Positions 19,330-48,247 are shown, counted from the first letter of the stretch. The stretch: 64,000 nt of DNA from an uncultured virus (IMG/VR IMGVR_UViG_3300044637_001924) (IMGVR_UViG_3300044637_001924), one strand, 5' to 3'. The notes: a model not told the origin generated them from the sequence alone. Program-made: numbers and translations.

Positions 19330-20010
19330 TTAGAGAGAGGTCAAGTCAACCATCTTCATAAATTCAGCACGAGCACTGGGATCCTGTTTGAACGCACCAC
19401 CCAGCTTGCTGGTAACTGTGCTGCTGCAATCATCTTCAACGCCACGATGACTTACGCAATAGTGCTTGCCGTGAATGACGACAGCAATGCTATCGGTTTC
19501 CAGGATATATTCCATTGCATGAAAGATCTGCTCAGTCAAACGCTCTTGAATTTGTGGTCGGCGGCTAAAGTATTCGACAATTCGATTGATCTTGCTTAGG
19601 CCCAATACCTTTTCTTTGGGAATATAAGCCACAGTTGCTACACCATCAATCACAATGAAGTGATGTTCGCAGGCACTTTTGACAGTGACATTTCGTTCAC
19701 ACACCATTTCATCATAGCCCATTTTGTTGGCAACAGTGGTGCACTTGGGGAAAGCTTCCCAATCAAGACCCCAAAAAAGTTCCTGGATAAACATGCGAGC
19801 CACTCGTGTCGGCGTTTCAGCCAAACTATCATCTGATAGATTCAAGCCCATTGTTTCCATGATGTCCTTGAACTTGCGTTCAATAATATCAATTTTGTCT
19901 GTGCGGCTTAGGGAATTTTCCACTGTTGGGGTTTCAACCCCTTTGGAAACTAGGTATTCATGTACTTTGCGACCCAGTTCAGGATCACATTTTGTGCGAT
20001 TATAGCTCAT
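19330..20010 (-). CDS. folE: GTP cyclohydrolase I
   Basis: ETPTRVA, SACEHHF, VLGLSKINRIV, RPQIQERLT, HYCVSHRGV. Confidence 0.95.
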   Translation of the reverse strand: MSYNRTKCDPELGRKVHEYLVSKGVETPTVENSLSRTDKIDIIERKFKDIMETMGLNLSDDSLAETPTRVARMFIQELFWGLDWEAFPKCTTVANKMGYDEMVCERNVTVKSACEHHFIVIDGVATVAYIPKEKVLGLSKINRIVEYFSRRPQIQERLTEQIFHAMEYILETDSIAVVIHGKHYCVSHRGVEDDCSSTVTSKLGGAFKQDPSARAEFMKMVDLTSL

Positions 20011-20085
20011 ATCTTTCCTTTCAAAGCATCTGTCGTTTATGCACAACGGGTGTTTCCACCAATTTGCTACCGTAATGTAGCAGAC

Positions 20086-20111
20086 TATTTATAACACAAA
20101 AATTGTGTTAT
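20086..20111 (-). promoter_or_regulatory. Late promoter TATAAATA (20086-20093) overlapped by hairpin ataacacaa/ttgtgttat
   Basis: Exact consensus between dpdA stop and folE start. Confidence 0.7.
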
Positions 20112-20113
20112 TG

Positions 20114-21772
20114 CTATTCAAATTCATCAAAATCCATGACAATGTTGTTATCAGCGTTCATTCCTGTGATTTTGGCTAACATAGCAGAATGTTTTTCAAT
20201 CAGTTGCATGGGTTTTTCACTAGTGAAGATCTCTTCACAAAGTCCCCCAGCAAATTCAATCAAGTCTTCGCTGATGTGATGTTTCCTCTCCTCCATTGGC
20301 AGGTCTTGCATTGCACATGCATGTTGAATAGCTTCAATATGAAGCTCAACATTGTGGCTCATGCCCAGCACATAGCTGAGACCATCCATGCTGCTGGGCC
20401 ATTTGACCTGATACTTTTCATGGTCCTTAAACTCTTTCTTGCCCCAATCAAACATGCCGCTGCCGTGGTCAGTGTGCTCATGCATAAGATAATGTTTGTA
20501 TTCATCACTGTAGCGAAACTTCTCGCCATGAACGCCTTCCAAGCTTTGTTGATACAACAAGCTTTCAAACTCTTTTTGTGAAAAAGCTTGTTTTTTGAAA
20601 TTGAGATCTTCATAACCTTTGACACAGATATCACCAATGGTGATCCGCTTGCCAATGCTGCTTTCGCGAACAGCATGTTTTTGATTGTGGCGATTGATCC
20701 AGTCTTGAAACAGTTCTTGACTGCCCTTAAGCTCTTTTTTGTCTGGCAACGAGTTGTTTTTATATGCAATGCTTTGCGGACTTACTTCCCAACTGTAGTA
20801 GATGTTGCCTTTTGCTACGTTCACAAAAGGACTTGCTGCATCGTAACTGAGAGTTGTACGCTCGTTGATGTGCTTTCTCCACACTCGTTGAAGTGTAGTA
20901 AGAGCGCAGCCTGCCTTGATTTTGCCATTGCCTAGATAATGGATCCAATCTCTGTTATCCAAATACTTGCCATCTCGCATGATAATGATCCGACGGAGAT
21001 TTATAGCAAAGTTGCTGGCTTGCACATTACTGAATGCCCAGGTTTCAAAAGGAAGATCTTTCACAACGTCCCACCAAATGTCACCTTCTTCTTGATTGCG
21101 CCCCTGCAACACATTCAAAAATTGTGTACTACCTTCCCGACGATTTTTGATGAAAAAGTTGTGATTCTCCATACTGCTTTCAAGACAGTCTCTAAAGTTC
21201 TTAACCCCAGGATGTAGGTTCTCACCTGTGATGGGATCGTTACCAAACTTCAACAAGCTGCCTGTGGGGACATCTAATACCATACTGTAGTCACAAGTGT
21301 GTTCAAGCCAGCGTAGGATTTTCATCCTAATGGCGTCTTTGTCCTTCATCCAGTCTTGATCAGTTTGCTTTTCTTTTTTCTGCCAAGGCCATTTGAGAAC
21401 GCCAGTAGCAATCTGATAACCACCACTGTCGCCCACAATTACTGAGGCGTTTTTGTCTCGCTTTTGCACCATAGCTTCTTGGATATCACTTTGAGCAGGA
21501 TCCCAATAACTGTGACCGCTGCTGTAGAGTGCAGTGGGATAATAAAATAAGTTGGTATTGGTTTGCAGAAAGTCCAAATCCTGCAATCCACCCGGCAGCC
21601 CCTTGACTGTGCGAGCGTTGGGCTGACTTACTAGTCGCACATAGATCGCTGAGATTGAAGGAAGAAAAATAGCATAGTCCTTGTTGGTGGTCCACATGTC
21701 TCTACCCACCACAGGTTGCATGTTTTGATCAATTTTTTTCAAATGTGGGTTGGGGCTGGAAAGTTTTGTCAT
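20114..21772 (-). CDS. dpdA: TGT-fold deazaguanine DNA transglycosylase (DpdA-like)
   Basis: GDSGGYQI, MVLDVP, NVLQG, IHYLG, SYDAASP TGT-type motifs; adjacent to folE. Confidence 0.8.
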   Translation of the reverse strand: MTKLSSPNPHLKKIDQNMQPVVGRDMWTTNKDYAIFLPSISAIYVRLVSQPNARTVKGLPGGLQDLDFLQTNTNLFYYPTALYSSGHSYWDPAQSDIQEAMVQKRDKNASVIVGDSGGYQIATGVLKWPWQKKEKQTDQDWMKDKDAIRMKILRWLEHTCDYSMVLDVPTGSLLKFGNDPITGENLHPGVKNFRDCLESSMENHNFFIKNRREGSTQFLNVLQGRNQEEGDIWWDVVKDLPFETWAFSNVQASNFAINLRRIIIMRDGKYLDNRDWIHYLGNGKIKAGCALTTLQRVWRKHINERTTLSYDAASPFVNVAKGNIYYSWEVSPQSIAYKNNSLPDKKELKGSQELFQDWINRHNQKHAVRESSIGKRITIGDICVKGYEDLNFKKQAFSQKEFESLLYQQSLEGVHGEKFRYSDEYKHYLMHEHTDHGSGMFDWGKKEFKDHEKYQVKWPSSMDGLSYVLGMSHNVELHIEAIQHACAMQDLPMEERKHHISEDLIEFAGGLCEEIFTSEKPMQLIEKHSAMLAKITGMNADNNIVMDFDEFE

Positions 21773-21781
21773 AGATATATC

Positions 21782-22870
21782 TTACTTTACTGTGGTTGAT
21801 CTAGCAACTGTGTTGCTGATGTTTTCAAACATTACGCTAGCTGAAAGATATTTTTGTAAGAGCACTTTCTTTTGCTTTTCCAACTGCCTACTGAACTTTT
21901 TGGGGTGATTCAATCTGTACTGAATAAATTCAGTCAATTGTTGTTTGTGTGTTTGATAACTTTCCCAATCTTGAGTCCAGTTGCTGGGATAGAGAAAATC
22001 AGGATGATACATTTCGCTGTAGCTGCACCGATTGGGCAGCACTGGGATCACATCTGCCAGCACAGCTTCCATTACACTGATGCCCAAGTTTTCATGCAAG
22101 CTACAGGAAAAAATTACTTGGCAGTCAGCCAGCTTTTCGTAATAACTGCTTTTGTTGAGATTCATTTTTTGTGTAATACACCAAGGCTGTTTCATGCTGT
22201 TGGAGAGATCTTCAGCAATTTCAGGCTGCTTATCTGGATTGTAACGGTGTGGCCAAATAACGCCCTGTTTCCTCTCTCGGCTGTCCTGCATAATATCTTG
22301 CATTTGTTTGACAATAGCAGAGTGTGGTTGCCCACTAGTTTTGGCTTTGTGATGATATTCATTGCTGATGCCCAGATTGCTCAAAAACATTTTTTTATGA
22401 AAATCTGTTGCATACCAATTCTCATCGCAGGCATGAAACAGTGCCTGCTCAGCTAGCCAGGGCCACGGTTTGCTCATTTTATATCCAAGGATATCAGTGG
22501 GATCGTATGCTCCAGCATGCCAGTAACCTTGTATGTTCCAATTATATCCCATGAGATCATTCATATACTTGACTTGCAGAATCACTGGATTCCAAGCGTC
22601 AGTGAACAAATGCACATCATTTGGAGTTGTTTCTCCAGCATCATGTTTGTTGAGAAACTCAACCAGTTGAGTGCTTTTCCATCTGTTGGTGTCGCTGAAA
22701 TTCAAAAATGCACCAGATGTGGTGCTTGTAGTGTTTTGGACCCCATCAAGTTGGATTACTTTTGCTGCATTTCCAACTATTTCTTGGAGCCGCAACGGAA
22801 TCTCGTGATACCATTGTTGGGTGTAGCGATTATCCAATGGCTCGATAGGCCATACAAATACATTGGGCAT
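21782..22870 (-). CDS. GT4-like glycosyltransferase immediately upstream of dpdA
   Basis: WPHRYNPDKQP, SLHENLGISVMEA (E-x7-E), PNRCSYSEM; 9-nt gap to dpdA. Confidence 0.8.
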   Translation of the reverse strand: MPNVFVWPIEPLDNRYTQQWYHEIPLRLQEIVGNAAKVIQLDGVQNTTSTTSGAFLNFSDTNRWKSTQLVEFLNKHDAGETTPNDVHLFTDAWNPVILQVKYMNDLMGYNWNIQGYWHAGAYDPTDILGYKMSKPWPWLAEQALFHACDENWYATDFHKKMFLSNLGISNEYHHKAKTSGQPHSAIVKQMQDIMQDSRERKQGVIWPHRYNPDKQPEIAEDLSNSMKQPWCITQKMNLNKSSYYEKLADCQVIFSCSLHENLGISVMEAVLADVIPVLPNRCSYSEMYHPDFLYPSNWTQDWESYQTHKQQLTEFIQYRLNHPKKFSRQLEKQKKVLLQKYLSASVMFENISNTVARSTTVK

Positions 22871-22963
22871 TTTTGATCCTTCAAATATTCTCTAATAGAG
22901 ATAGTATATAAACCACAGGAGTTTTTGACAATTATAGCATTGAAAATTATAAGGTTATCGCCA

Positions 22964-23025
22964 ATACAAAGTATTTGAGCCAGCACAATCCTATCTCGAT
23001 CTCCTGGCGCTCAAATACTTTGTAT
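22964..23025. repeat. Perfect 17-bp inverted repeat (long hairpin)
   Basis: atacaaagtatttgagc 22964-22980 / gctcaaatactttgtat 23009-23025. Confidence 0.9.
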
Positions 23026-23040
23026 AGCAATCCTTGGTGG

Positions 23041-23412
23041 TTATGCAGCGTCCCAGGCTAGCACAGCCCCATTCTCACCATCTTCACTAACGTCAATGCT
23101 CACTGCACGACCTGGATAGCGAGCAGAGATTTGGGCGTAGAGGTCTTCGGCGATCATCTCGCAGCTTTTGAAATCCAGTTGGATCACACCATCACCATAG
23201 AGACTTTCCAGCCAACGCTTGAAAATGATAAATTCAATGTCTCGGTCTAGGTGATTGACGCCAATTCCAACCTTGAAATGAAACATGTGCCTATGCGGAT
23301 ATTGAAGAAAATTTACATCTGCAAGGGAGGGGTCAGTTCCAGCTGCTGGATACTTGTGAATCCCTTCACGTTGAAAAGTCACGTAGATTTTTCTTGTAGT
23401 TGGTTCTGTCAT
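23041..23412 (-). CDS. dpdL: T-fold QueD paralogue, DpdL-like (putative CDG decarboxylase)
   Basis: LQYPHRHMF fits LxxxHRHxF in place of QueD CxxxHGH; SCEMIA and VSEDGENG retain the T-fold Glu positions. Confidence 0.7.
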   Translation of the reverse strand: MTEPTTRKIYVTFQREGIHKYPAAGTDPSLADVNFLQYPHRHMFHFKVGIGVNHLDRDIEFIIFKRWLESLYGDGVIQLDFKSCEMIAEDLYAQISARYPGRAVSIDVSEDGENGAVLAWDAA

Positions 23413-23468
23413 TATTTCTCTCTTTGTTATGTGTTCAGATTATATGCTGTAGTCAGCTAAATCAACCG

Positions 23469-23696
23469 CTACACCAATTGATTTACTGTGCAATATTTGA
23501 GGCCACATTGTGCACTACAAAACTCAATACGGGTGGTCCCCATGTCACGGAAATATTCTGGCCAAATGTCACTTTGAGTATGGACTACTGCCCCATCATT
23601 GTCACAAACGTATTTCCTGTAAGGCTCACAGCTTGTGCCGCATGCAACACATTTGAGAGTGGGAAAATTTGATGGAATGGTTTTTTTATGTTTCAT
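23469..23696 (-). CDS. Small Zn-finger-like protein
   Basis: CVAC ... FCSAQC. Confidence 0.55.
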   Translation of the reverse strand: MKHKKTIPSNFPTLKCVACGTSCEPYRKYVCDNDGAVVHTQSDIWPEYFRDMGTTRIEFCSAQCGLKYCTVNQLV

Positions 23697-24685
23697 TTGG
23701 GTACCAGCGTATCAACAAAGATATCAGTTGTTTTTTCCCAACTCCATCGCTTGCTGCCTTCAAAAACAGTTTTTCGACTCAATGTCAAACATTGCGAGAT
23801 AGCTGTCTGAATATCCTCATTTAGCACACCAGTCACCCCATCATCTACAACATCTATTGGACCCTGCACAGGAAATGCTGCAACAGGAGTACCAACACTC
23901 ATGCTTTCAATCATAACCAACCCAAACGTGTCACTTTTGCTGGTGAAAACAAAGCAGTCAGCATTTTGGAACTGCTGTACCAGTTGCTTACCGCTCAATT
24001 GCCCAGTAAATGTCACCCAGGGGTATTTGTTCTGTAACCGCTTGAGATCAGGGCCATCACCAACACACACTAGATTGTATTTTTCTGCTGATAGGCTACA
24101 AAACACCTCTAAATTTTTCTCAGCACTGATTCGACCAACACTCAACAATGTGGGCTTGGTGTCACACTTGCGGTCATTAAATTGAAACAGTTGGGTGTTG
24201 ACTCCCCGTGACCATGTGATGGCTTGAGACAGGCCAAGCGACACCATCTCTCTTTGCATAGTAGGAGTGTTGACCAAAGTTGCTGCACTATTTTGATGAA
24301 ACCATTTGAGATACCTCATGGTTTTGAGGGCCGGCACACCAAATTTTTCCTTGAGATAGTGATCCCATCTTGTGTGAAAGCTAGTTGTGTAGCGCCAATT
24401 TTTGTTTTGAAAAAATTGCCTAGCAGTTAAGCCCAGCACACCTTCTGTACAAATGTGCAAGTGTGTGGGTTCATACGCCTCTATTCTTTTTTTCAAATTC
24501 CAAAAATTCAATGGTATGCGAGCACCTGGATATACCAATGCAGGCATAGACATCATTTGATCAGGAGTGATGTGAATGAGATTCTGTATGCCTCGAGAAA
24601 ACATTTGTTTTTTCACTGCATTCATTGTAGTTACAACACCATTCACTTGGTCTTGGCAGTTGTCATCAACAATCACAAGTCTCAT
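23693..24685 (-). CDS. GT4 glycosyltransferase, Agt/glycolipid synthase-like
   Basis: QVNGVVTT, HICTEG.LG, TTSFHTRW, WSRGV, VGRISAEKNL, DTFGLVMIES..GTPVAAFPVQGP. Confidence 0.85.
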   Translation of the reverse strand: MRLVIVDDNCQDQVNGVVTTMNAVKKQMFSRGIQNLIHITPDQMMSMPALVYPGARIPLNFWNLKKRIEAYEPTHLHICTEGVLGLTARQFFQNKNWRYTTSFHTRWDHYLKEKFGVPALKTMRYLKWFHQNSAATLVNTPTMQREMVSLGLSQAITWSRGVNTQLFQFNDRKCDTKPTLLSVGRISAEKNLEVFCSLSAEKYNLVCVGDGPDLKRLQNKYPWVTFTGQLSGKQLVQQFQNADCFVFTSKSDTFGLVMIESMSVGTPVAAFPVQGPIDVVDDGVTGVLNEDIQTAISQCLTLSRKTVFEGSKRWSWEKTTDIFVDTLVPK

Positions 24686-25470
24686 TCAAGGCTCCATGTG
24701 TTTTTCGTCATCATACTTTTTGTTTCAGTGTCGTAAACCAGTAGCTCTATTGAGCCATCAAAGTTTTCAACCAAAGCTGACACAGTTTCACAAAAATCAC
24801 CACAATTCATATACACAAACCCATCCTCAAACGTTTTCAACGATGGAGAATGAATATGGCCACAAATTACTCCATGAAATGCTTCGTCCCGAGCATATTG
24901 TACTACATGTTGCTCGTATTTGGTGATAAATGCAACAGCTTGTTTCGTGTTTGTTTTAAGGTATGAACTTAGACTCCAATAATCTTTTCCAAAAAACCGG
25001 CGCATATGATTCAAATGTGTGTTCAACCACAGTAAAAAACTGTGTGCTTTGTCGCCCATCAAGCTAAGCCATTTGTGATATCGAATTACACCGTCAAACA
25101 AATCACCGTGTGTTACCAAAAATCTCTGCCCATGAACAGAGTGATGTTCAAAGGCATTGCCCAGCTCAATGTTGCCAAAAGTGTGTATGTCTGGAATCCA
25201 TGCTCGAAGGTACTCATCATGATTACCTAAAACATATCTCACCTGTGTGCCTCTCTTGGCCGCAGTGAGAATTCTTCGAACCACATTGCTATGTGTTTGT
25301 GGCCAGAATTTGCTGCTTTTCAATTTCCACAAATCAAATATGTCACCAACGAGGTATAGATTTTGGCAGGAGTTGTGTTTCAAAAACTCCACAAGTAGCT
25401 CAGCTTGGCATGCACGACTACCAAGATGCGTATCGCTTATGAAGATGCTACGATATTTGCTGTTTGGCAT
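24682..25470 (-). CDS. LpxH/PlcP-like metallophosphoesterase
   Basis: YRSIFISDTHLG, LVGDIFD, GNHDE, HGDLFD, CGHIH, YMNCGDFCE. Confidence 0.85.
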   Translation of the reverse strand: MPNSKYRSIFISDTHLGSRACQAELLVEFLKHNSCQNLYLVGDIFDLWKLKSSKFWPQTHSNVVRRILTAAKRGTQVRYVLGNHDEYLRAWIPDIHTFGNIELGNAFEHHSVHGQRFLVTHGDLFDGVIRYHKWLSLMGDKAHSFLLWLNTHLNHMRRFFGKDYWSLSSYLKTNTKQAVAFITKYEQHVVQYARDEAFHGVICGHIHSPSLKTFEDGFVYMNCGDFCETVSALVENFDGSIELLVYDTETKSMMTKNTWSLE

Positions 25471-26047: not shown

Positions 26048-26800
26048 TTAGCGCAGCTTTGCTGGCAGCACATACTTGTATGTGGTAATGCCAGTATTGA
26101 GCTTGAGCTGAATAGCACCCTTGACGGAGAAGCTCATTTCAGCATCAGCACCATCAACCAGCTTCAAAAGTGCAGATACAAGAGCAATAGGCCATTTGTG
26201 TGAGCTTTCAAACTCGCCCGTAACCCCTGTAGCAAACACTACACCGCCGCGTTGAGTAGCTGCACCTTCATCTCCAATGAAAAACTTGAGGTTACCATCA
26301 ACTGTCTTGGGAATGAAGTATTGCTCGTAGCTGCTGAGACTGCCAGCAGCCCAATTGAACTGTTGAATGTTGCTTTTGCTGGGTTTGATTTTCACGTCCC
26401 ACTGTGGTTCCATGTACTTGGGTTGATCTGGGACCATGTTTTTTGCTAGGAAGCGATAATTGATGAAACTATTGCTCTTGTTTGTGTAGTGCATCTCAGT
26501 GGGAACGTCTACACCTTCACGCTCAGTAAGCACTAGTTCAAGCTTGCTGTCTTTGTGGGCAAACTCGGAATCATTCACAATGCTGTTGAGCAAGCCTAGA
26601 TTGGCAAGGCCAAATTCTCCAGCCCAGCCGTCCACAGGATGCAAAGTTTCAGCCTTGAGAATCACTTGTTTGTCTTTGTCAATAGCCTCAATGGTGCTGG
26701 TTTTGGCGCCACCAGACACCTTGATTTTTTCGTAAAAGCCAGTACTGATCACGTTCTTTGCAAGATCAGAAATTGCATCCTTAATAGCTGTTGCTGTCAT
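26048..26800 (-). CDS. DNA polymerase sliding clamp (gp45-like)
   Basis: About 250 aa, near polB; FG..NL..L, NYRF, C-terminal YKYVLPA. Confidence 0.7.
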   Translation of the reverse strand: MTATAIKDAISDLAKNVISTGFYEKIKVSGGAKTSTIEAIDKDKQVILKAETLHPVDGWAGEFGLANLGLLNSIVNDSEFAHKDSKLELVLTEREGVDVPTEMHYTNKSNSFINYRFLAKNMVPDQPKYMEPQWDVKIKPSKSNIQQFNWAAGSLSSYEQYFIPKTVDGNLKFFIGDEGAATQRGGVVFATGVTGEFESSHKWPIALVSALLKLVDGADAEMSFSVKGAIQLKLNTGITTYKYVLPAKLR

Positions 26801-26802
26801 TT

Positions 26803-27006
26803 TCAATAACTCCCTTTGTTACCCATTTTGCGTTGTGTTGTCTCTTCGTCAACCAGGATGGCATTTTGTTTCAAATCATCATCAGTCCAACCCATCATGT
26901 TCTTGAGTATGAACCTTCGACTTAGCCAAGGTGGTGCACTGTTCAATGCTTCAAATAAAGTTTTGAGTTCAGTAGGCTCATATATTCGAGTTTTTTGGGA
27001 TTTCAT
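26803..27006 (-). CDS. Small protein resembling the C-terminus of a T4-type portal protein
   Basis: WLSRRFILKNMMGWTDDDLKQN...EE resembles the gp20 C-terminal S..F..K..L..T.EEI pattern. Confidence 0.5.
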   Translation of the reverse strand: MKSQKTRIYEPTELKTLFEALNSAPPWLSRRFILKNMMGWTDDDLKQNAILVDEETTQRKMGNKGSY

Positions 27007-27024
27007 AATTTTTCCACAATTGAG

Positions 27025-27657
27025 TCAGTTGTCAAACACAACCTTTGTAATATAGTGAGCGATGCTCACGGGTATGTCAACTCTTAAGGGACACCACAGT
27101 CGCATTTGATCTTCTTTTTTGAACAGGAGTGCAACGCTGTCTAAATCACTTGAACCTTTGTATGCCACATAGGCAGTGTGCTCGGGTACCCGATCACTAA
27201 CAAATATTTGACTGCCTTGTTTGTCAAATTTGCGCAACACGCCTGCTGAGTACCAACAGCCCACTTGTTTACAGGAATTGCTGTCATCAATATACAGTTG
27301 ATTGTCTGGTATTTGGGCACGTATCTCCGGAGTTGTGAAAATGAGATTACCACAGCCTCGACGATTTTGATGCCCTAATAAGGTTGACTGTCTACGGAGT
27401 GCAAATGGCAATCCATCGTATTTTTCCACCACAGTGTTTGCTTGTGAAAACAGCAAATCTTCAGCTTCAATTATGCTGTCGACTTCATGAAAGTCGTCCA
27501 CTACTGAATCTAGACACACATGGCCAGTAACGAACACTAAGGTGCTAGTGGGGGTGCTTGTTGGTGAGTTCCAAGAAGCCGGTGAAGTTGGAGGGTAGGA
27601 CTTATACCGTAAGAGTTGAGCCCTCTCTTCAAGAGAGGTTCCAAAGAGAGGGCTCAC
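27025..27657 (-). CDS. Truncated, divergent homologue of the T4-type major capsid protein C-terminal part
   Basis: RRGCGNLIFTTP matches gp23 RRGxGNxxxxS; YVAYKGSSDLD matches gp23 VGYKG...D; only 210 aa. Confidence 0.6.
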   Translation of the reverse strand: MSPLFGTSLEERAQLLRYKSYPPTSPASWNSPTSTPTSTLVFVTGHVCLDSVVDDFHEVDSIIEAEDLLFSQANTVVEKYDGLPFALRRQSTLLGHQNRRGCGNLIFTTPEIRAQIPDNQLYIDDSNSCKQVGCWYSAGVLRKFDKQGSQIFVSDRVPEHTAYVAYKGSSDLDSVALLFKKEDQMRLWCPLRVDIPVSIAHYITKVVFDN

Positions 27658-27666: not shown

Positions 27667-28041
27667 CTAATTAGTTTTCTTTTTGGCTGGTGCCTTGCGT
27701 TGACTAGGCGCCTTGGGTTCCTTAAGGGCTGTTGTAGCTTTTGGCTTTTTCCCTGTTTTAGCTGGGGGAGGTTCCTGTGATGGCTCTTGTTTGGCAGTAA
27801 TTACAGGGGCAGGTTGCTGCAACACTGGTGGATCTGTTGGACTAGACGTGATTGGTTGGTATGCACCTTTTTCAATTACAAGGGCTGCCTTCTCTGAGCT
27901 GGGTGGCACAGGATTTCCAGCGGGTGTCACAACTATTGGCTGGATTGGTTCTGTCCTGGGTGCAAGAGTAGTTGAAACTGGTGTTTGATCAGGCCCAAAC
28001 ATCCGTCGTATGCGTTCGTATAAGGCAGAAAAAATATTCAT
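27667..28041 (-). CDS. Pro/Lys-rich low-complexity protein
   Basis: AAGGA RBS; amphipathic N-terminus then P/T/K-rich tail. Confidence 0.6.
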   Translation of the reverse strand: MNIFSALYERIRRMFGPDQTPVSTTLAPRTEPIQPIVVTPAGNPVPPSSEKAALVIEKGAYQPITSSPTDPPVLQQPAPVITAKQEPSQEPPPAKTGKKPKATTALKEPKAPSQRKAPAKKKTN

Positions 28042-28104
28042 GAATTATTCCTTAAGGTTGACTTTTGTCAAATCTACTTGACATATAGCTCCGTTGTCAA
28101 CCTT

Positions 28105-30861
28105 TCAAAAACTAAACATGCTGTCAAAAGTTTCGTTGTTTTTGGCATCTTCAAGATTCCAGTGCAATACACCCAACAAGTTTTCCAGTTTCTTGTCCAA
28201 AATTGTGGCCTCCATAAGAGCGTTGTCAAAAGGCATAGACTTGAACCAATCAGGAAGATACAGTTGATCTACAGGGTATGCAACAGATGTCATACCCAAA
28301 GGGTTTGATCTCAGCTTACAGACAATCACCTTTTGCCCGTCTTGAATTCGCATTGATCCATAATCGTTGTAGATCTCACACAATAGGTTCCAGTTTAGGC
28401 TCGCAAGGACATGGCCCGGAATAGTTTTTCTTTTCCCAGTGTCTTTGTTGAGGTCAACGCTTTCCTGAGCTTTCTTAATCATGCCATATTGAGTAAGGTT
28501 ATTCACCCTTTTGGGGCTGCCTTTTGCCCAGCTGGGCCATTGGCTGAACTCTGTGCGGAACTCCTTGATGCGCGTGAAAATGCTGTCTTTGTCAACCTCA
28601 GTCAAAACCAAAGTTAAAATCTCACTCAAGAAGTCCTGGACTGGTTTTGGTGTATCACTTCTCTTGAGATCAAGCCCCATAACTTTGATCTCACCTGGCT
28701 TGCCATCTACATCCTTTCGCTTGCCTTCTTTGTCGTAGATCATCACAGCATACCGTTTTTTGGTAATGAACAATCCATGGCTTGCTACTAGTTCACGGCC
28801 AGCTTTGATCACACTCCTGGATTCAGGTACATTGAATGCCTGTTTCATAAATCCAGGAAAGCTTTGGTTAGTGATGTCTGCAACTTGATCATACAGTTGC
28901 ACCACTGCTTCACGACTCCAATCAAAGCTTTTGAAGTCTTCAAGCTGGCTCATTACTGGATATGCGCTAAAATAAATGCTGTCGGTGTCGCCATATATGA
29001 CAGCATCACCTTTGTAGTGATATTTCCCTGATATTACCTCATTGATCTTACTACCCATGTGTTTGACGATACATCTACCTGTTAAAGTAGTACTTTGTGC
29101 AATACGGTTGTCAAACCACGATGAGCTAGAATTTCCGATAGCTCCATAAAGTGAATTTAGCAAAATTTTCTTAATCAACTGCCTTCTGTCATAAAAATCA
29201 GCTTTTTCTTGATACTCACTCTTCTTAGAGGGATTAGGTTCTTCATCAGCTTTTTTGAAACATGCTTTGGCTTCTGCCTGCAACTCCTTTCTCTCACCAT
29301 ACCAGCGGGCCAGCAAGCCTGGTACCACACCTTCCTTGTTGAGATCAAAAATAGTGCCATTGGCACTGAGCGTCATTTGCTTTTTGGGATTTTCAAAAAT
29401 CCATTGATACAGTTCGTCAGCACTGAGTTCCACAGTGGTGCCGTCTTCAAAGTCCACAGTCAGCATAACCATTTCCCTATTCATCACTTGGTTATACTCA
29501 ATAATGCCAAACATCTCGTTCCAACTGTCAGCAAAAGTGCGTTTTTCCTTTTGCATCCTGTGTTGAATCAAACGATCATTACCCACAGGGCGGATTTGCC
29601 CCACTACTGTTTCCTTGCTCATGTTCAAACTTCGAATAGCACTGGGATATAGACTGTTGATGTCTACACCGCCAATCCATTTGTGCATGCCTTCAACTGG
29701 GTCAGCCACATATGCACCAGCAATACCATTGGGCTCAATGTCTTCACCCTGATCGTCTTTCATGATTTCAGGATTGTCTCTACGTCGAGTAGGAACACAT
29801 AAGCCAAGATCATGTGCTTCGTTAGTAATGGCATTGTCAATAAGCTGTACTGACCCCATTGTTGTTTGGATCAACACTCCGTTTGTGTGTGCTAGATCAT
29901 TGCTTAGATCAATGAATTTCAGCTTGCGATCAATTTTCACCAACAGCATAACGTCTTGCCTGTTATAGGCAATGAACTTTTCAAAGTCTTCGTTATAGAG
30001 CTTGTCCAAGCTGCCTTCGTAAGCTATCTTCTTGTCGCCCACTTCATACTCGCCCACAAAGTCCAGTCGATAACTGTGCATCTCGTGATAGGTATGCTTG
30101 CGGTACAGTTGCAGATAGTCAAGATGGACTCTGCCCACTAGATCAAAAGTAATAGTGGGCTTGCCATAGCTTTCATACTCCCTTTTCTTGGGAAATTTGT
30201 TCCAGAGACACAGCCTTTTAGTGTGCTCCTTACTCAAAATTTGAATGATACGATTGTGCAAATAGGGAATATCATAACCCTCTGAATTCCAACCTGTGAG
30301 AACATCTGCATCCTCAATGAGGGTGAGAAACACATCCAATAGCTCAGTTTCATTGCTACACAGCACAGTGTCTTCAAATTTGTCCACAACTGCTGATGCT
30401 TGCTCTACTGTGAGTGTTTTGGGTTTGAGGACAAGAGTAAAGTTTTTGCCCAGCCAACTCAAATATACAGATACTGCTGTAATGGGATTGAACGCCTCGT
30501 CAGTTGACGAGAAGCCCCGATCAGGATCAAAATCAGTTTCCAAGTCAAAAAACGCCACATGCAACTGTGGACTTGCTGTATTTTTGTAATGTTCATAAAA
30601 ACAACGGAAAATGGGATTGCTATCACTTTCATATTGTTGTGTTTTTGGAACCAAGCGACACTCTCTTTGAAACTCTTCCCAACGATTGGTTTCAAATTTA
30701 TCCAGCCGTTCACCATAAATGCTAGTGTATTTTCCACGCTCACTGGGAAAATACATTACGTATTTGCTGGGATATGTGTTGTAGACTCGTTTGTGGTTTA
30801 CACGCTCCACAACTTGAATACAGTGTTTGTCTTTCTCCAAAATAGCATCAACATACGTCAT
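28105..30861 (-). CDS. Family B DNA polymerase (gp43-like)
   Basis: Exonuclease FDLET, GWNSEGYDIPY, YNRQDV; polymerase DINSLYPS, KILLNSLYG, YGDTDS, KKRY. Confidence 0.97.
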   Translation of the reverse strand: MTYVDAILEKDKHCIQVVERVNHKRVYNTYPSKYVMYFPSERGKYTSIYGERLDKFETNRWEEFQRECRLVPKTQQYESDSNPIFRCFYEHYKNTASPQLHVAFFDLETDFDPDRGFSSTDEAFNPITAVSVYLSWLGKNFTLVLKPKTLTVEQASAVVDKFEDTVLCSNETELLDVFLTLIEDADVLTGWNSEGYDIPYLHNRIIQILSKEHTKRLCLWNKFPKKREYESYGKPTITFDLVGRVHLDYLQLYRKHTYHEMHSYRLDFVGEYEVGDKKIAYEGSLDKLYNEDFEKFIAYNRQDVMLLVKIDRKLKFIDLSNDLAHTNGVLIQTTMGSVQLIDNAITNEAHDLGLCVPTRRRDNPEIMKDDQGEDIEPNGIAGAYVADPVEGMHKWIGGVDINSLYPSAIRSLNMSKETVVGQIRPVGNDRLIQHRMQKEKRTFADSWNEMFGIIEYNQVMNREMVMLTVDFEDGTTVELSADELYQWIFENPKKQMTLSANGTIFDLNKEGVVPGLLARWYGERKELQAEAKACFKKADEEPNPSKKSEYQEKADFYDRRQLIKKILLNSLYGAIGNSSSSWFDNRIAQSTTLTGRCIVKHMGSKINEVISGKYHYKGDAVIYGDTDSIYFSAYPVMSQLEDFKSFDWSREAVVQLYDQVADITNQSFPGFMKQAFNVPESRSVIKAGRELVASHGLFITKKRYAVMIYDKEGKRKDVDGKPGEIKVMGLDLKRSDTPKPVQDFLSEILTLVLTEVDKDSIFTRIKEFRTEFSQWPSWAKGSPKRVNNLTQYGMIKKAQESVDLNKDTGKRKTIPGHVLASLNWNLLCEIYNDYGSMRIQDGQKVIVCKLRSNPLGMTSVAYPVDQLYLPDWFKSMPFDNALMEATILDKKLENLLGVLHWNLEDAKNNETFDSMFSF

Positions 30862-31026
30862 CCAAAACTCCATAATCCATATAAATTCAACCCTGTATAA
30901 AACAACATCATTACAGCGAGTAATAGATTCTTACGCAAAATACTGCTGATGGTCAAGGCTACACTGCCAAACAACCAAAACAAATACAATGTGCTCAAAG
31001 GTAATATTTGAAAGGCTTAAACGGCG

Positions 31027-32471: not shown

Positions 32472-33587
32472 TTATTTAACCGAGGGAAATTTGCCATTGC
32501 TTTGAGTTTGAGGAGGAACTCCTCCTGCTGTGACTTTGTTGAGAAATTTCCGGGCTTGTTTTTGAACAGCATCAGGTCCCACATCGGTGGTAGTGTTCAC
32601 ACCTTTAACTATCTTGCCCACACCAGCTGTTTCGCCAAGACTGGGTTTGAGAATCAAGTAGCCATCTGTTCCTGGCGAGAGAGAGTAGGGAAAACTCTCT
32701 TGCTTGGTTACCCAAGTCCAACCCAGATGTCTTGCTAATTTTGGTGCCATACTCTTATAACGCTTTTTCCTGCTCGGGGCCCAAGCCTGGAACCAAAGTC
32801 CATTTACAGGTAAGGTTTTTTGATGATCAATAGCATACTTGAGAAGTTGAAACACAGCACTGAAGACTTTAAAGGCTGAACCTGTGCCACTTATGTCCAT
32901 GCCATACTCTGTGTGCCTAAATTCCACCTCGTAAATACCCCTCTTCTGAGGCTCTTGCAATCGAGACATTCGAAGCTCGTATTCGTTGCCATCAATTTCA
33001 AACAAAAAATCAATATAGCTGTCGCCTTCTGTTTTTATCTTCCATTTATCCCGGGGAAGTTGGTAATCAAAAGCCTCTTGCAATTTTGGTTGAACTATTG
33101 CACTGGGCTTATATACAACAAAGTCACTTGTGTCAAAATCAAAATATACTTTGGCACCAGCTCTCTGCGCCAACATTTGACCCAATGCGCTATAGAGCTT
33201 GTTCCTGCTGCCGCGTCCACCAATAAAAGTCAAGTAGTCCCATTCATGAGATCCAAGCCAACCAAAGAGGCGTCGCACCAATTCTTTCCACAAGGGTATG
33301 GCCTTAAGGCCCATTGTGCCAGTTTGTTCTATTTCCCCATCCACTGTCCATAACCAAACATAGCCCTTGGCTTGTGGATTGGGCTCTAAATCACTGGCAG
33401 CCAATGCATCCTGTAAGTCTTTTTGATTTTTATCTTGAGTAAGTCTTTGTTCGACTAAATGGTCATCATACTCAAAGCTTGTAATATATCTTGAAACTGA
33501 GCCCACATTGTCTTGTTGCCATTTGGTTGTCAATGGCTGATAAGCTTCTAGCAACTTCTTTAAGGGCACTAAATGGTAAATTCTCAT
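32472..33587 (-). CDS. Modular polyprotein C with two 'TG..A..F....SRxxxY' domains and a C-terminal module
   Basis: Modules bounded by KLLE/A, KLQE/A and SLGE/T. Confidence 0.75.
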   Translation of the reverse strand: MRIYHLVPLKKLLEAYQPLTTKWQQDNVGSVSRYITSFEYDDHLVEQRLTQDKNQKDLQDALAASDLEPNPQAKGYVWLWTVDGEIEQTGTMGLKAIPLWKELVRRLFGWLGSHEWDYLTFIGGRGSRNKLYSALGQMLAQRAGAKVYFDFDTSDFVVYKPSAIVQPKLQEAFDYQLPRDKWKIKTEGDSYIDFLFEIDGNEYELRMSRLQEPQKRGIYEVEFRHTEYGMDISGTGSAFKVFSAVFQLLKYAIDHQKTLPVNGLWFQAWAPSRKKRYKSMAPKLARHLGWTWVTKQESFPYSLSPGTDGYLILKPSLGETAGVGKIVKGVNTTTDVGPDAVQKQARKFLNKVTAGGVPPQTQSNGKFPSVK

Positions 33588-36478
33588 ACTTTTATAAGGT
33601 TTCCTTTGAGATCTGTGATAGTAATCCTATCAATACTTACAGGTGTTACCTGACAATTGGGCAGCAAATTATCTCTATCTGAAGGCTGCATGGTATCTAC
33701 TGGCATATATGCTCGTGCAGTTTTATCCTCAGGTGTTATTTCCCAACTTAAGATGTATTTGCCAAACCAATCATGCTCACCAACATCAAAAAATATAGCA
33801 ATAACTGGAGTGAAAGGATATTCCACAGTGCTATATCGGCCAAATTCTCTAGCACCAGTCTCATCATATTTTGGTTTCAGTCCGCCTGACTTTATTATAC
33901 TTGTAAGCTTATTGGTCATATGGTATACTCGCTGGCCCACAATACTTTTGCCTGGATATAAATTATATTGGGAATATTGCATGCCAGGCTCATACCAAAT
34001 ATTTGCTCCAGGACGCAAACCTTTGTAACTTAAACTTTCGTCCAAGTTAGTGAATGATGCAAGCTTGTCCTGCTTGACAATTGCAAAGCTTTTGTTAGTG
34101 TGCAACACTGTGCTATCAGCAGGTGCCAACTGTTTTGCCAGCCGGAGATAGAGCTTGTTGCGGCTGCGCTCATCCCCACTGAAGTTGATGTAGTCCCAGC
34201 TGTGGGTCTGGAAAAACCATTTGAGTTTTCGTATAATCAAATCAAATAATTGGGCACTTTTTTGGTCAAACATACCTGTTACAGAGATGCTGTGATCTAC
34301 AGAGAAGGACACTTCATATCCAACCCAGTTTTCTGGCACTTGCTTTTGCAAGATAGTTTGAAGCTCATAAGAAGCGTCTTTTACGACTGCTATTTGCACT
34401 TCACTGCCAGCAAATTCAAATTCAGTGTAGTGGGTTGAACCGCCCTTTATTGATTGCCAATCTCCAGGAAGTGGCTTGCCTTTAAAAACTTCATCCAGCT
34501 CTTGAGATTTTGCTGCCAACAAATGGTTTTTGATCAGCAGGAACCAATCTCCAAATTGCATTGGCTCTGAATCAAGTCCTGGAGATATCTGACTCAATAT
34601 TTTAGTATATACTCTTTGTCTACTGTCCCCAGCACCTGCGAAGACCAAATAGTCCCATTCTATATTTTGTAGTAGTCCTATGATTTTTCCTACAACAATT
34701 GAAATTACATTCGCTGCACCTGTGCCTAGTAAGCCTGTTGGATCAGTTTCGCCATCTACCCTGAATATTATTTCTCTGCCAACCAGGTTTGCTCCAGCCT
34801 CTATGTTTTTCTTCATCAACACATAGGCACCAGATTGGGCCCAATCCCGACTCACACTTATTGTGATCTTATATCCTTGAAGATCAAACTCTGTTTCAAA
34901 CATTTCTGCGTCGCCGCTTCCATATTTTTTCCAATCGCCTGGAATATGCTCACCACTTATGATTTCATCAACTCTAGTTGCTCCGCCGCAATGTTTGTTT
35001 TGAAACCAGTTGGCTTGGCGTTTGTCTAGAGTTGTAGCACCCTGGCGTGTTTTGAGTTTTTGTGTTTTGTCACATGTGACACCTCCGCCATACAGTCTGG
35101 TGATTTTGGATTTGAGAGTGCCAGGCGCACCTTTGCGCTCTGTTAACAATGTATCAACAGGCATTTTCTCCCAATGCAGCCATGCTGATGGTGCAACTTG
35201 GTTGTGCACACCAGGATCGTATTCTACAACCTTTCCTCGGTATATCTCCCTTATTTGATTCGCTGGTATAGAGCCTTTGACTCCCACTTCATGTGATCCT
35301 GTGCCTTGCACATGCACAATTTTTGATTCATCAGGTTTGGGCACTGCAATTACCCATGCTGGATTGTCCCAGTTGGCTTTTTGATTCCATGGTGCAAAAC
35401 TATGAGCATAAGTTTCAGCTGACCTGGGTTCAGTTGAAAAATAGGTTAAGCCCTGTTGCCCAGCCAAGTTATACTCGCCTTTGCTTTGTATCACTCCTGT
35501 TTTTTTGATATTTTGAAATTCATGATTACTCATGCCCCTATACACTAGGTTGGGATTTGGAGTTATGTTTAAATTGGCACGCAAATGAGATTTGGGAACA
35601 AGCTGATCTTTTACGGCGATGACTTTGCCATCATCGTCTTCAAGTGGGTCACTTTTGATGTCAAAATAATTGGGATCATATTCGCCCAATCTACCTCTCC
35701 AGGTTACACGGTATGTGTCTCTTTTGTTTTCATTTTCTTCTGAGAGACTTTTTTGAGTCTTTAACAGCAGTTCAAAAAACGGGCCAGATACACTAGTGTT
35801 TGCTCTCTGTGGTACAAGACGCAGGTTGAGTGCTTCAATCCATTCAGGTTTGATGTGCCTAGCACGCAATCCACCGACAAAAAACAAATGAGTTTCAACA
35901 GGTGCATCGCCTTCAGTTTCTAGGACCGCATACATTCTGTTGCGGCCTTCGTGCCCAATTACTCTTGCGGATTTATTATAACGACCTTTTTCCCATTCTA
36001 TTGGTATGTCTAAGACCAGCCAAGGACTGGCCATTCCCTGCCCTTGATCTAGTTGCTGTTTGATATAATCCACACTCCCAGCATGTTCTCTTGACAAAGG
36101 GCTAGCCAATTTCAAAAATACACTGGGCTTCATCGCGACTCTCAAGCCAAGATAATCCACATTCTTATTGTCAGGCACTTCCCCAATGCCACTCACATTG
36201 TCGATTTTTACTTCATTTAGCAGGGCAAACAGCTCTATCAGAAGAGCTTCTTGAGCAGGCTTTTTCTCAAGTTTGCTCAATTTCTTGTAATAGTTAAGAT
36301 CCTCACCCAAGTGATCCAAGGCTATTTCTCGCGCCACACTCCGCAACCGGGTGTGTTCCATCTCCACTTTGATGCCCTGTGCCAGCTGTTTCTCCACAGA
36401 GTCTGTTGACACTTTGTATTTTTTAGCCAGCTCAGCTACGCTACTGGTAGGCTTGTTCAATAGGTCATTCAGTTTCAT
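33584..36478 (-). CDS. Modular polyprotein B: DUF5661-like, ParB-like, ART-like, small basic module, two SRxxxY domains, second ART-like domain
   Basis: GIKVEMEH..IALDHL.E...YY; GHEGRNR; YRG..YFST..HEV; VYHMT..I..GGL.P; linkers LLNE, LSEE, LLTE, RVDE, ELDE, NLDE. Confidence 0.8.
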   Translation of the reverse strand: MKLNDLLNKPTSSVAELAKKYKVSTDSVEKQLAQGIKVEMEHTRLRSVAREIALDHLGEDLNYYKKLSKLEKKPAQEALLIELFALLNEVKIDNVSGIGEVPDNKNVDYLGLRVAMKPSVFLKLASPLSREHAGSVDYIKQQLDQGQGMASPWLVLDIPIEWEKGRYNKSARVIGHEGRNRMYAVLETEGDAPVETHLFFVGGLRARHIKPEWIEALNLRLVPQRANTSVSGPFFELLLKTQKSLSEENENKRDTYRVTWRGRLGEYDPNYFDIKSDPLEDDDGKVIAVKDQLVPKSHLRANLNITPNPNLVYRGMSNHEFQNIKKTGVIQSKGEYNLAGQQGLTYFSTEPRSAETYAHSFAPWNQKANWDNPAWVIAVPKPDESKIVHVQGTGSHEVGVKGSIPANQIREIYRGKVVEYDPGVHNQVAPSAWLHWEKMPVDTLLTERKGAPGTLKSKITRLYGGGVTCDKTQKLKTRQGATTLDKRQANWFQNKHCGGATRVDEIISGEHIPGDWKKYGSGDAEMFETEFDLQGYKITISVSRDWAQSGAYVLMKKNIEAGANLVGREIIFRVDGETDPTGLLGTGAANVISIVVGKIIGLLQNIEWDYLVFAGAGDSRQRVYTKILSQISPGLDSEPMQFGDWFLLIKNHLLAAKSQELDEVFKGKPLPGDWQSIKGGSTHYTEFEFAGSEVQIAVVKDASYELQTILQKQVPENWVGYEVSFSVDHSISVTGMFDQKSAQLFDLIIRKLKWFFQTHSWDYINFSGDERSRNKLYLRLAKQLAPADSTVLHTNKSFAIVKQDKLASFTNLDESLSYKGLRPGANIWYEPGMQYSQYNLYPGKSIVGQRVYHMTNKLTSIIKSGGLKPKYDETGAREFGRYSTVEYPFTPVIAIFFDVGEHDWFGKYILSWEITPEDKTARAYMPVDTMQPSDRDNLLPNCQVTPVSIDRITITDLKGNLIKV

Positions 36479-39400: not shown

Positions 39401-40193
39401 CAGCATCATAGCTGGCGTCGTTAATCTCTTCTTGCTCATATGTGATTGCACCCAATAAGTCTTCTAGATCTGCGCGATCCAGTTGATTAGCTGATTCCTC
39501 AAGAGGTAAGTTCCAATAACCAGTTCCTTGATCTTGAAATCCCATCTTCTCATAAAATTTGTGGCTGTTCCAGATGGGTTTCACAACAGCGAGTAAGGCA
39601 CCTTGTTTCTGGCTTTGTGCTAACCCCTGCTCCAAAAGTTGCCTACCAGTGCCATTCAAACTACCTAACCAAGTGATTTTTGCTGTCTTGTTGTCGAGCA
39701 GTATGTGCAATGCACTTTGGCAACCTTCAGTGTAGAGCCAAATGCTGTTGTTACCTAGTTGTGGATCGTTTTCAAAAAGCTTCTGTGATTCCAAAACGTG
39801 ACTGATGGCACGCAAGGCTCGATAGGCTTTGCTTTGCGTTCCCAGTTGACTGCTTGCCGTCGTTAGCTGGCGAGAAATTTGTTCGTTGTAGGTTTGCATC
39901 AGTGTCCCACAAGAAGTGAGAACAGCTATAGTTGGTGATGTATGGGGTGTTGTAGAGCGAGAATCAAACACTATATCCTTGGCTGGATCTTTGTAGATAG
40001 AGGTTGTTATATATCCTGATTGCAGGATATTAGGCGCATTGTCTAGTATAGTGCTATGATAGAGTTCACTGGGATTATTTTTTGACTCTTCCGGCTTGTC
40101 ATTCTTTGGGTCAGTGTCTTCCCACTGGCTGAACACACTGGGTTTTTGATTCTGTTGGTCCTCCTTGTTTTCCAAAATATCAACCAGCTTCAT
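36465..40193 (-). CDS. Modular polyprotein A: three GNAT domains, deaminase, HsdS-like domain, ART-like domain and small basic Cys modules
   Basis: GTGRQLL..FYEKMGF; GAGKALM..FYHKLGY; QGSGVG..WYKSYDF; HAE..SPCS; LYHVT..RGL.P..GVFL; linkers PLEE, KLEE, VVEE, PLNE, YLDE, ELKE, MLSE, QVSE. Confidence 0.85.
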   Translation of the reverse strand: MKLVDILENKEDQQNQKPSVFSQWEDTDPKNDKPEESKNNPSELYHSTILDNAPNILQSGYITTSIYKDPAKDIVFDSRSTTPHTSPTIAVLTSCGTLMQTYNEQISRQLTTASSQLGTQSKAYRALRAISHVLESQKLFENDPQLGNNSIWLYTEGCQSALHILLDNKTAKITWLGSLNGTGRQLLEQGLAQSQKQGALLAVVKPIWNSHKFYEKMGFQDQGTGYWNLPLEESANQLDRADLEDLLGAITYEQEEINDASYDAAGPKYEKLDKDFKALEAVAYVVKNNLRALDNPNLGKNSIFLYNYTPDLGVFSVTAIHVVIENQVAHVKWLGSYDNKPGAGKALMLQALTIAKNKGATKSVVEAKWESEGFYHKLGYDVENRGSNNPFTGTSLVQMGKKLEEAWTDEDQRMVHKNPTIQDLKRLARNNKYHSARFVIYKDGSVVAADSEHYTHHSAAPAMGAWALRGYVQYLGGNDYAYRSMEVYSPKSVDHPLFRKWESSGIENGNPSVVEEKWTKKYKKSINCSNPQGFSQRAHCAARRKRQKGGKTTSKPLNENNNVEIHNYKKLDRILVALCNLVDTRRKKNPDKYGWVAAGLLDPRNRLVIGFSTFANDKWYHAERLAMRAYRKKYGSIPDGCIIVTTCSPCSEQMPRYGESCTDLINKSPVKKVYCGYSDTTQSQSQRTFNIMVTADTNIRERCQKFAENFMDWEAQYLDESLRDWFKQKWVRFGTDGKIRGDCARGSEGEGKPKCLPQRKAWALGKKKRATAARRKRREDPNPEREGKARNVATKESVGSTKLGDLCTIKTNFPDADFWLVRRSDRTNVGTPAKEFSPYHIGIKVTATEQLMPEYLYYMMMHLHNQGYWNSRSMGMSNLVHIRTEDVKNIQLALTEHELKENSSCPHCGGQMVNYSMLSEKQDACYYKVKSRYKVWPSAYASGALVQCRKKGAKNWGKSKTNESISIDQQEEHGGLEAYITDTSTPQLVNYLASENAPADLAEKLQRRYKTIAVFKNIWVEEDHQGSGVGSWILEAGIGDAIDNQAHAVILTAVSDDPKRQSQLEKWYKSYDFKEIARSSTGYPVMLLDLNKDQVSEAAPWLGQGDEPLPTKLYHVTRTRNRLSIRQRGLVPKTKEHDHILRQPGVFLFETFEQAEDWAYYWSQDEGESMDIWEIKVQDPNDLTPDPALDIQHDYDAWVIYKPIPAANVRLKFTQRWPEPWGKPTTTVKKIRNLEEDPNETE

Positions 40194-47022: not shown

Positions 47023-47068
47023 ATGATGTCTCCTTCTGAGCCTTACTGTAGCAGAATTTTTGGGTTTG

Positions 47069-47785: not shown

Positions 47786-47802
47786 GTGTGTCTCCTGCGA
47801 GG

Positions 47803-47830
47803 ACTATAGCAGGTTTAAGGAAAGTGTCAA
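47803..47830 (-). promoter_or_regulatory. Sigma70-like promoter TTGACA-N16-TATAGT
   Basis: Intergenic, upstream of the DUF1190 gene. Confidence 0.6.
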
Positions 47831-47832
47831 GC

Positions 47833-48231: not shown

Positions 48232-48247
48232 CTCTGGGTTTCCTTTT

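Follow-up and report, generated by a model that had tools for sequence, protein, structure and literature searches.

A reduced paralogue of the T4-type major capsid protein, paired with a portal-derived miniprotein, in the replication gene cluster of an uncultured virus

Introduction

Why would a phage keep, between the genes for its DNA polymerase and a putative sliding clamp, a relative of its major capsid protein (MCP) of only half the length? The question is posed by a 64,000-nucleotide stretch of DNA (the window) from an uncultured virus (IMG/VR IMGVR_UViG_3300044637_001924), which forms part of a 180,697-bp virus record judged to be 44% complete. On the minus strand of the window, at 27025..27657, lies an open reading frame (ORF) of 210 aa with a GTG start. 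A first-pass annotation had described it as a truncated homologue of T4 gp23 with C-terminal gp23 motifs, of insufficient length for a complete HK97 fold, and possibly acting as an immune decoy. The motifs on which that description was based are present, RRGCGN as residues 99-104 and YVAYKGSSDLD as residues 163-173 of the product, which we will call mini-gp23.

Our analysis places mini-gp23 in a family of pared-down HK97 cores that has no annotation and that is represented here next to a pared-down portal tail. The family comprises 52 representative clusters in uncultured phages of 300-570 kb. It illustrates how much of the HK97 fold can be lost while selection still maintains the remainder, and it offers a testable handle on whether structural proteins are copied by phages to serve as decoys, as shields, or in the regulation of assembly.

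Results and Discussion

Mini-gp23 is a paralogue of the T4-type major capsid protein

A capsid gene proper is present elsewhere in the genome. Copies of the mini-gp23 ORF with 99-100% identity occur in contigs of up to 309,756 and 328,603 bp, and the larger of these, a 100% identical sister contig, carries the true MCP gene, which encodes 413 aa and matches the Pfam family Gp23 (PF07068) with an E value of 7.1e-96. The true capsid gene that the first-pass annotation expected elsewhere in the genome is thereby located, and its distance of ~160 kb from mini-gp23 agrees with the earlier remark that the ORF lies far from the head genes.

By itself, mini-gp23 matches the same Pfam family at 20.1 bits (E 4.7e-4; residues 72-176 on positions 213-316 of the 376-position profile), which is below the gathering cut-off of 24.4 bits, and in the genome search it scored 18.6 bits. 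The match recurs in all nine close homologues that were examined. An exhaustive profile search with these nine sequences against 1.84 billion representatives returned 52 hits at E ≤ 1e-3, including 16 at E ≤ 1e-10 and 5 at E ≤ 1e-30. The family alignment used throughout also has 52 rows, namely the window ORF, 6 close homologues outside the 52 hits, and 45 of the hits themselves; left out were a 1270-aa ankyrin-repeat artefact, a 101-aa fragment, and hits of 156 aa, 179 aa, 170 aa (P0006), and 414 aa, the last being the family core with an extra C-terminal part. Gp23 was matched by 40 of the 52 wider family members (best E 2.8e-18) and phrog_138, annotated as "major head protein", by 25 of the 52.

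When the profile of the 52-member family was compared with the phage's own MCP by hhalign, a probability of 98.8% was obtained (E 5.4e-17), and comparison with four MCPs (its own and those of Phosso, GAP32, and Atu_ph07) gave 99.1% (E 1.1e-18), with family columns 83-211 aligned to MCP residues 254-406 of 413. Direct BLASTP of mini-gp23 against its own MCP is weak (E 4e-4 in a single comparison; 29% identity over 38 residues), which indicates that the duplication of the capsid gene is old. Identity to the own MCP in the aligned part amounts to ~17-21%, and the residues GRW and EAED, which are invariant in the family, do not occur in the MCPs. A search of the PDB by sequence with a nine-sequence profile reached T4 gp23 at E 1.5-1.7, which is not significant, and the three better rows (E 0.24-0.26) were unrelated small proteins aligned over 45 residues.

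We conclude that mini-gp23 is a true homologue, more precisely a paralogue, of the T4-type MCP. It is not the MCP proper, as it has neither the curated score, nor the full architecture, nor the location in the head module. A different identity suggested by the ESM Atlas, DUF6267 (12-22% of the members in the nearest clusters), was rejected, since none of the 52 family members match it; in this phage DUF6267 matches a different frame of 749 aa elsewhere.

The predicted fold is a compacted HK97 core

An AlphaFold2 model calculated from the 52-sequence alignment shows a single domain with a mean pLDDT of 89.4 and a pTM of 0.86; softer stretches are found around residues 21-40, a hypervariable loop rich in Pro, Ser, and Thr, and around residues 190-200. 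The best rows of a Foldseek search of the PDB were all HK97-fold capsid proteins, with T4 gp23 from the unexpanded head at the top (E 3.8e-5). Alignment to T4 gp23 (PDB 7vrt chain) with VIA-align gave a Z score of 15.6 and an rmsd of 4.3 Å with 190 of the 210 residues aligned, such that model residues 1-210 superpose on gp23 residues 107-520. Scores for other HK97-fold proteins were lower, with 11.9 for T4 gp24 and 8.4-10.4 for HK97 gp5 and encapsulins. Taken with the hhalign probabilities of 98.8-99.1%, the Z score of 15.6 upholds the gp23 homology proposed in the first-pass annotation.

Two other parts of that description have to be revised. The protein is not too short for the HK97 fold, given a confident model that covers gp23 107-520, and the truncation is not a matter of the C-terminal part. 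The superposition onto gp23 107-520 and the alignment up to MCP residue 406 of 413 together place the losses at the N terminus and internally. Accordingly, mini-gp23 is, as modeled, a compacted HK97 core that reaches the C terminus of the MCP and not a C-terminal fragment. The N-terminal part of the profile alignment is weak, with 80 residues on ~125, large deletions, a probability of 17%, and an E value of 1.4e-3.

In HK97-type capsids, the N-arm, the insertion, and the E-loop tie the subunits into a lattice, and the A-domain makes contacts around the capsomer axis. Judging from its length and the start of the superposition, the mini-gp23 model has no propeptide and no N-arm. The secondary structure and the weak N-terminal alignment suggest that the insertion and most of the E-loop are absent as well and that the spine helix is reduced to ~10 residues. 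What appears to be kept are the A-domain, the last strands of the P-domain, the short spine helix, and an N-proximal strand. Hence, mini-gp23 shares with T4 gp23 and the own 413-aa MCP its ancestry, its core fold, the RRGxGN and YKG..D motifs, and the C-terminal end, but it differs from them in its half length, its missing propeptide and N-arm, its place outside the head module, its Pfam score below the cut-off, and probably its lack of the insertion and its short E-loop and spine helix.

Encapsulins, which have a compact HK97 fold of ~260-290 aa, resemble mini-gp23 in being small HK97-type proteins encoded outside a virion gene module (Z 8.4-9.6). Unlike encapsulins, mini-gp23 belongs by sequence to the gp23 family, with matches to Gp23 and phrog_138, and the encapsulin Z scores are well under the 15.6 obtained with gp23. 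The Pfam hits of the window included no neighbor of the encapsulin cargo type.

The neighboring gene is a conserved copy of the portal C-terminal region

The genes around mini-gp23 follow each other tightly on the minus strand in the order polymerase, Pro-rich ORF, mini-gp23, mini-portal, and putative clamp. The family-B DNA polymerase (28105..30873, 922 aa) is identified by Pfam (DNA_pol_B, E 2.1e-29) and PHROG (phrog_262, E 1.1e-198). The 252-aa putative sliding clamp (26048..26806, with a likely true start at the ATG at 26800, behind AGGGAG) takes its name solely from a Sinorhizobium phage Phosso protein so named by its depositors (35% identity, E 3e-50); its PHROG family, phrog_12062, is of unknown function, and no PDB sequence was matched by either the single protein or a 5-sequence profile. 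With this proviso for the clamp, the placement of the ORF between these two genes in the first-pass annotation stands. The first gene of what we refer to as the trio, at 27667..28041, encodes a Pro-rich protein of 124 aa with a Lys-rich tail in the same frame as mini-gp23, and no Pfam or PHROG family was matched by it.

The third gene of the trio, at 26803..27006, encodes a 67-aa protein that we call mini-portal. It aligns to positions 386-433 of the 433-position Pfam profile Portal_T4 (E 0.009, below the cut-off), and BLASTP against the own portal shows 37% identity over 57 residues, corresponding to portal residues 471-527 (E 2e-8). That portal, of 585 aa, was identified in the sister contig with an E value of 2.7e-102. 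Eleven homologous clusters of mini-portal are 64-69 aa long with 59-99% identity, and dN/dS is 0.089, a value obtained from two valid pairs, the third pair consisting of identical sequences. The predicted structure has three helices (pLDDT 77), and the T4 portal occupies the top two rows of a Foldseek search, with E values of 0.7 and 1.3 that are not significant alone. These sequence comparisons identify mini-portal as a conserved copy of the C-terminal helices of the phage's own portal.

The mini-portal and mini-gp23 clusters have longest contigs of equal length (7,637, 5,306, and 304,444 bp), which suggests that the two genes travel together down to ~35% identity of mini-gp23. A predicted complex of the two proteins scored 0.00 in a run without control pairs, so that it counts neither for nor against an interaction. 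Moonlighting of the portal on RelA/SpoT was considered as a model for the 67-aa protein and set aside, as this activity, according to PMC13483052, requires an intact portal ring.

In the head module of the sister contig, the true MCP gene is preceded by a 401-aa coiled-coil ORF, and the portal gene lies ~10 kb from it. Directly after the true MCP gene there is a 284-aa ORF with endonuclease-like repeats (L014:2613-3467, minus strand).

A further partial copy of a head protein was noticed outside the record to which the window belongs. A 111-aa gene (L017:1513-1848, equal to positions 143875-144210 of the 328,603-bp contig, G002) has residues 1-53 that are 43% identical to MCP residues 169-221 (E 1e-6), the part that comprises the E-loop and the spine helix. 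Its C-terminal "…F.LTW" domain is common to at least nine small ORFs, several of which stand in overlapping tandem arrays. When the small ORFs of the 328-kb contig were compared with its large ones by phmmer, this gene was the sole copy of a head protein found. The known mini-gp23 and mini-portal were both missed, mini-portal being outside the gene set, and the screen is therefore insensitive.

The gene is under purifying selection and belongs to an accessory family

A search of 5.8 billion clustered proteins yielded eight clusters homologous to mini-gp23 at 46-96% identity. Six of them are 210-211 aa long, one is 194 aa (46% identity), and one is 170 aa and starts only at alignment column 42. 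The 210-211-aa frame is intact in most relatives, down to 53% identity, and the alignment of close homologues has 54 invariant columns and a mean column identity of 72%. Comparison with 70%-identical orthologues from two other viral contigs gave dN/dS values of 0.115 and 0.126, at a dS of 1.8-1.9 that is near saturation, and a less saturated pair (L011/L013) gave 0.160 (dN 0.065, dS 0.407). Neutral decay in relatives, which the first-pass annotation had named as an observation that would speak against its proposal, is thus not found in any of the three pairs (0.115-0.160), and these ratios indicate that mini-gp23 is under purifying selection.

The order of polymerase, Pro-rich ORF, mini-gp23, 67-aa ORF, putative clamp, and a CYTH protein is kept in a relative whose mini-gp23 is 70% identical. 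In this phage pair, mini-gp23 retains 70% amino acid identity compared with 97% for the polymerase and 96% for the putative clamp. The Pro-rich ORF and the CYTH protein are fast as well, with 50% and 63% identity, respectively; the orthologue of the former in L011 has 101 aa, 50% identity, and a dN/dS of 0.17. Across neighboring genes dS ranges from 0.40 to 1.88.

The same DNA stretch was found in 20 lake-water metagenome runs, and none of the 24 runs listed as containing it was an RNA run. By polymerase identity, the nearest cultured jumbo myoviruses are Agrobacterium phage Atu_ph07 (46.7%) and Sinorhizobium phage Phosso (45.7%), followed by the GAP32/CBB/fHe-Yen9-04 group (~42.5%). In three of three cultured relatives, the family profile found the full-length MCP alone (E 7e-16 to 8.5e-22), apart from an additional weak stretch of 37 positions in Atu_ph07 (E 0.012). 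Neither tblastn of the window ORF and two distant members (P0029 and P0013) nor megablast of 5.6 kb gave a match among 50,697 phage records, and by eye the cultured relatives have at most one small, unrelated-looking ORF between polymerase and clamp. As the cultured relatives yield only their MCP and the phage records no match, mini-gp23 is an accessory gene and, as far as these searches can see, is confined to uncultured phages. Sub-alignments did not locate the loci of distant members in viral, genome, or metagenome contigs.

Most family members are 190-290 aa long, and cluster look-ups placed members on contigs of 304,444, 339,978, 440,255, and 572,229 bp, sizes that fit jumbo phages. A motif of the type SP[LIF][LF] stands within the first six residues of 26 of the 52 members. 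Directly before it, eight members (P0011, P0014, P0017, P0018, P0023, P0040, P0042, and P0050) carry a twin-arginine-type leader, with a …TRRxxLxGAA… pattern followed by an AxA-like site. The Pfam family TAT_signal was matched by one of the 52 (E 0.017). The leaders point to export for this part of the family, and mini-gp23 of the window has no leader or hydrophobic segment.

Expression signals are consistent with synthesis before the head proteins

A consensus match to a sigma70-like promoter (TTGACA-16-AATAAT, 11 of 12 positions) is found at 28044..28071 on the minus strand, 3 bases upstream of the ATG of the Pro-rich ORF, and a second promoter-like consensus match (TTGACA-16-AAAAAT with TG; 27008..27035, same strand) stands just before the start of mini-portal. 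The GTG of mini-gp23 has no visible Shine-Dalgarno sequence and follows the stop codon of the Pro-rich ORF by 9 bases, in frame (stop plus three codons). This in-frame spacing of three codons is kept in relatives, with either TAG or TAA as the stop, and suggests that mini-gp23 is translated by termination-reinitiation coupling. Read-through of the stop, which would fuse the Pro-rich ORF to mini-gp23, is unlikely as a rule in view of the TAA stop in two relatives and the tRNA search, in which ARAGORN found no tRNA gene in 19 pieces of the 328,603-bp contig.

In the 328-kb contig, heptamers of the form [ACT]TAAATA show a 14- to 16-fold enrichment upstream of genes, compared with 4- to 5-fold for GTTGACA. 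Thirty-two of 50 TAAATA sites fall in the 200-328 kb part with the portal and MCP genes, one of them 34 bases before the portal gene, and this distribution suggests that [ACT]TAAATA is a variant of the T4-like late promoter. None of these late-type motifs occurs before the trio, a pattern that fits early or middle expression. The three genes of the trio are probably expressed together. A sigma70-like promoter match, no late-type motif, and a position in the replication cluster suggest that they are made before the head proteins.

A proposed role as soluble stand-in for capsid and portal proteins

What, then, might a stripped capsid protein do when made among replication proteins? Bacterial immunity offers a candidate answer. 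Capsid and portal proteins are described as major triggers of bacterial immunity (PMC13581612). According to the same source, Avs7, Avs8, and Avs10 recognize MCP monomers that have just been made, by binding the A-domain on the face that forms capsomers, and EF-Tu makes the Avs7 complex stronger. Avs1-4 collectively respond to the large terminase subunit and the portal (PMC13581612). The A-domain, which is the best-conserved part of mini-gp23, is exactly the region bound by Avs7, Avs8, and Avs10.

We therefore favor, with a probability of roughly 30%, a reading in which mini-gp23 is a soluble, non-polymerizing mimic of head proteins that serves as a decoy or a shield. On this model, mini-gp23 would stand in for the unassembled MCP monomer, being free of the parts that knit the lattice, and would occupy factors that recognize the conserved A-domain face or the N-proximal strand of the monomer. 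The targets could be sensors with which host immunity detects capsid and portal proteins; these would be soaked up or blunted by a protein made jointly with mini-portal and the Pro/Lys-rich protein before the real head proteins appear. The adjacent copy of the portal C terminus, the sigma70-like promoter without a late-type motif, and the faster divergence all fit such a mimic.

A wider version, which we regard as more doubtful than the stand-in itself, treats mini-gp23 and mini-portal as an early module of trigger look-alikes that would desensitize receptors or, through the N-proximal strand, co-factors of the EF-Tu/Lit type. The T4 Gol determinant, which activates the Lit protease via EF-Tu, is a 29-residue region within the highly conserved first quarter of gp23 (PMC3014915), the same first-quarter segment onto which the N terminus of mini-gp23 superposes, from gp23 residue 107. 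At the sequence level, the two N-terminal stretches correspond weakly (hhalign probability 17%, E 1.4e-3). The exact coordinates of Gol in gp23 are assumed here.

Several points weigh against the stand-in model. A core mimic that keeps the A-domain could itself activate sensors that read the fold, unless it fails to license their oligomerization. The export leaders in 8 of 52 relatives argue against it too, as cytoplasmic sensors are absent from the destination of such proteins and a cytoplasmic decoy offers no explanation for them. A general set of trigger look-alikes is not apparent, since Terminase_6N gave a single match, the real gene, so that no mini terminase was seen, and the tail tube family Phage_T4_gp19 gave no match at all. 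A single promoter-like site is weak evidence, as 19 sigma70-like sites were found in the scanned region compared with 13.2 +/- 4.2 in shuffled sequence, which is not clearly more. Furthermore, the uneven dS among neighboring genes means that mosaic recombination, rather than an arms race, may add to the divergence of mini-gp23. Finally, our literature searches found no published case of an anti-defense protein that mimics a capsid protein, and no description of the mini-gp23 family. If the stand-in model were nevertheless true, it would define a class of phage counter-defense that mimics the phage's own structural proteins and is spread among uncultured jumbo phages.

Other possible roles for a reduced capsid protein

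The alternative that survives best, although we consider it unlikely, is that mini-gp23 modulates assembly by capping the A-domain face of full-length MCP. It could hold back the phage's own monomers for as long as scaffold and portal are not yet ready. Alternatively, it could act as a dominant-negative subunit in a co-infection and poison capsomers that belong to a relative or a satellite. Such a role would draw on the part best shared with MCPs, the A-domain helix and loop of the RRGxGN region (99% probability), as well as on the lattice-contact elements that appear to be shortened or absent, and it would suit an accessory and fast-diverging gene. Against this, an identity of ~17-21% to the own MCP does not imply co-assembly, the export leaders in 8 of 52 relatives do not fit, and the portal-tail neighbor is left unexplained.

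Those same leaders speak for a second alternative, to which we give slightly less credence, namely that the HK97 core has been taken over for a task that has nothing to do with capsids or immunity and may lie at the cell envelope, such that only the ancestry is capsid-like. The twin-arginine-type leaders stand exactly before the SPLF motif, the presence of an SPLF-type motif within the first 6 residues in 26 of 52 members looks as if a free N terminus matters, and the invariant GRW and EAED are not shared with MCPs. The window ORF itself, however, lacks a leader or hydrophobic segment, and the conserved pairing with a portal-derived gene suggests that some head-related logic is retained.

That pairing would suit a minor head component, meaning a subunit that arose from the MCP and takes its place at a special vertex, near the portal, or in the prohead core, a role that we hold to be improbable. 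T4 gp24 provides the precedent. It is a full-length vertex protein and virion subunit encoded in the head module. As with mini-gp23, gp24 (PDB 1yue) is a diverged MCP paralogue kept beside the MCP, and it is among the structural matches to the HK97 core of mini-gp23, with a Z score of 11.9; unlike gp24, mini-gp23 is a stripped core encoded in the replication cluster. Its 210 aa compare with 391-413 aa for the MCPs considered, from this phage and its relatives, and a start at the position of gp23 residue 107 leaves no N-arm or propeptide. The gene is ~160 kb from the head module, where the late-type motif occurs that is missing at the trio, and it was not found in three of three cultured relatives that build homologous heads.

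That mini-gp23 is a functionless, decaying remnant of a duplicated capsid gene, as a GTG start without a visible Shine-Dalgarno sequence and a single-sequence Pfam score under the cut-off might suggest, is refuted by the conservation data, with dN/dS values of 0.115-0.160, an intact 210-211-aa frame in most relatives, 52 representative relatives in the profile search, and a confident model, and has next to no probability left.

Other features of the window and the sister contig

Just downstream of the putative clamp, on the minus strand at 19330-25470, GTP cyclohydrolase I adjoins a 552-aa ORF without a family match, two glycosyltransferases, a metallophosphoesterase, and a CYTH protein; this may be a cluster for DNA or nucleotide modification. 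The region 32472-40193 on the same strand contains large ORFs of 371 aa, 969 aa, and 1242 aa. The second of these three begins with DUF5661 and has internal repeats in common with the first, and the third combines a cytidine deaminase domain with several matches to GNAT acetyltransferases. A GC-rich island (0.52-0.56 versus ~0.43) at 45871-49857, also on the minus strand, encodes glutathionylspermidine synthase, DUF1190, DUF350, and an ATP-dependent ligase, and looks like a recent gain of host-type genes.

In the 328,603-bp contig, at 285995-288500, two ORFs of 82 and 485 aa are alike in their first 65 residues (68% identity) and have a related 238-aa ORF between them on the opposite strand. 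The 82-aa/485-aa pair may represent a gene that was disrupted or duplicated by a homing element.

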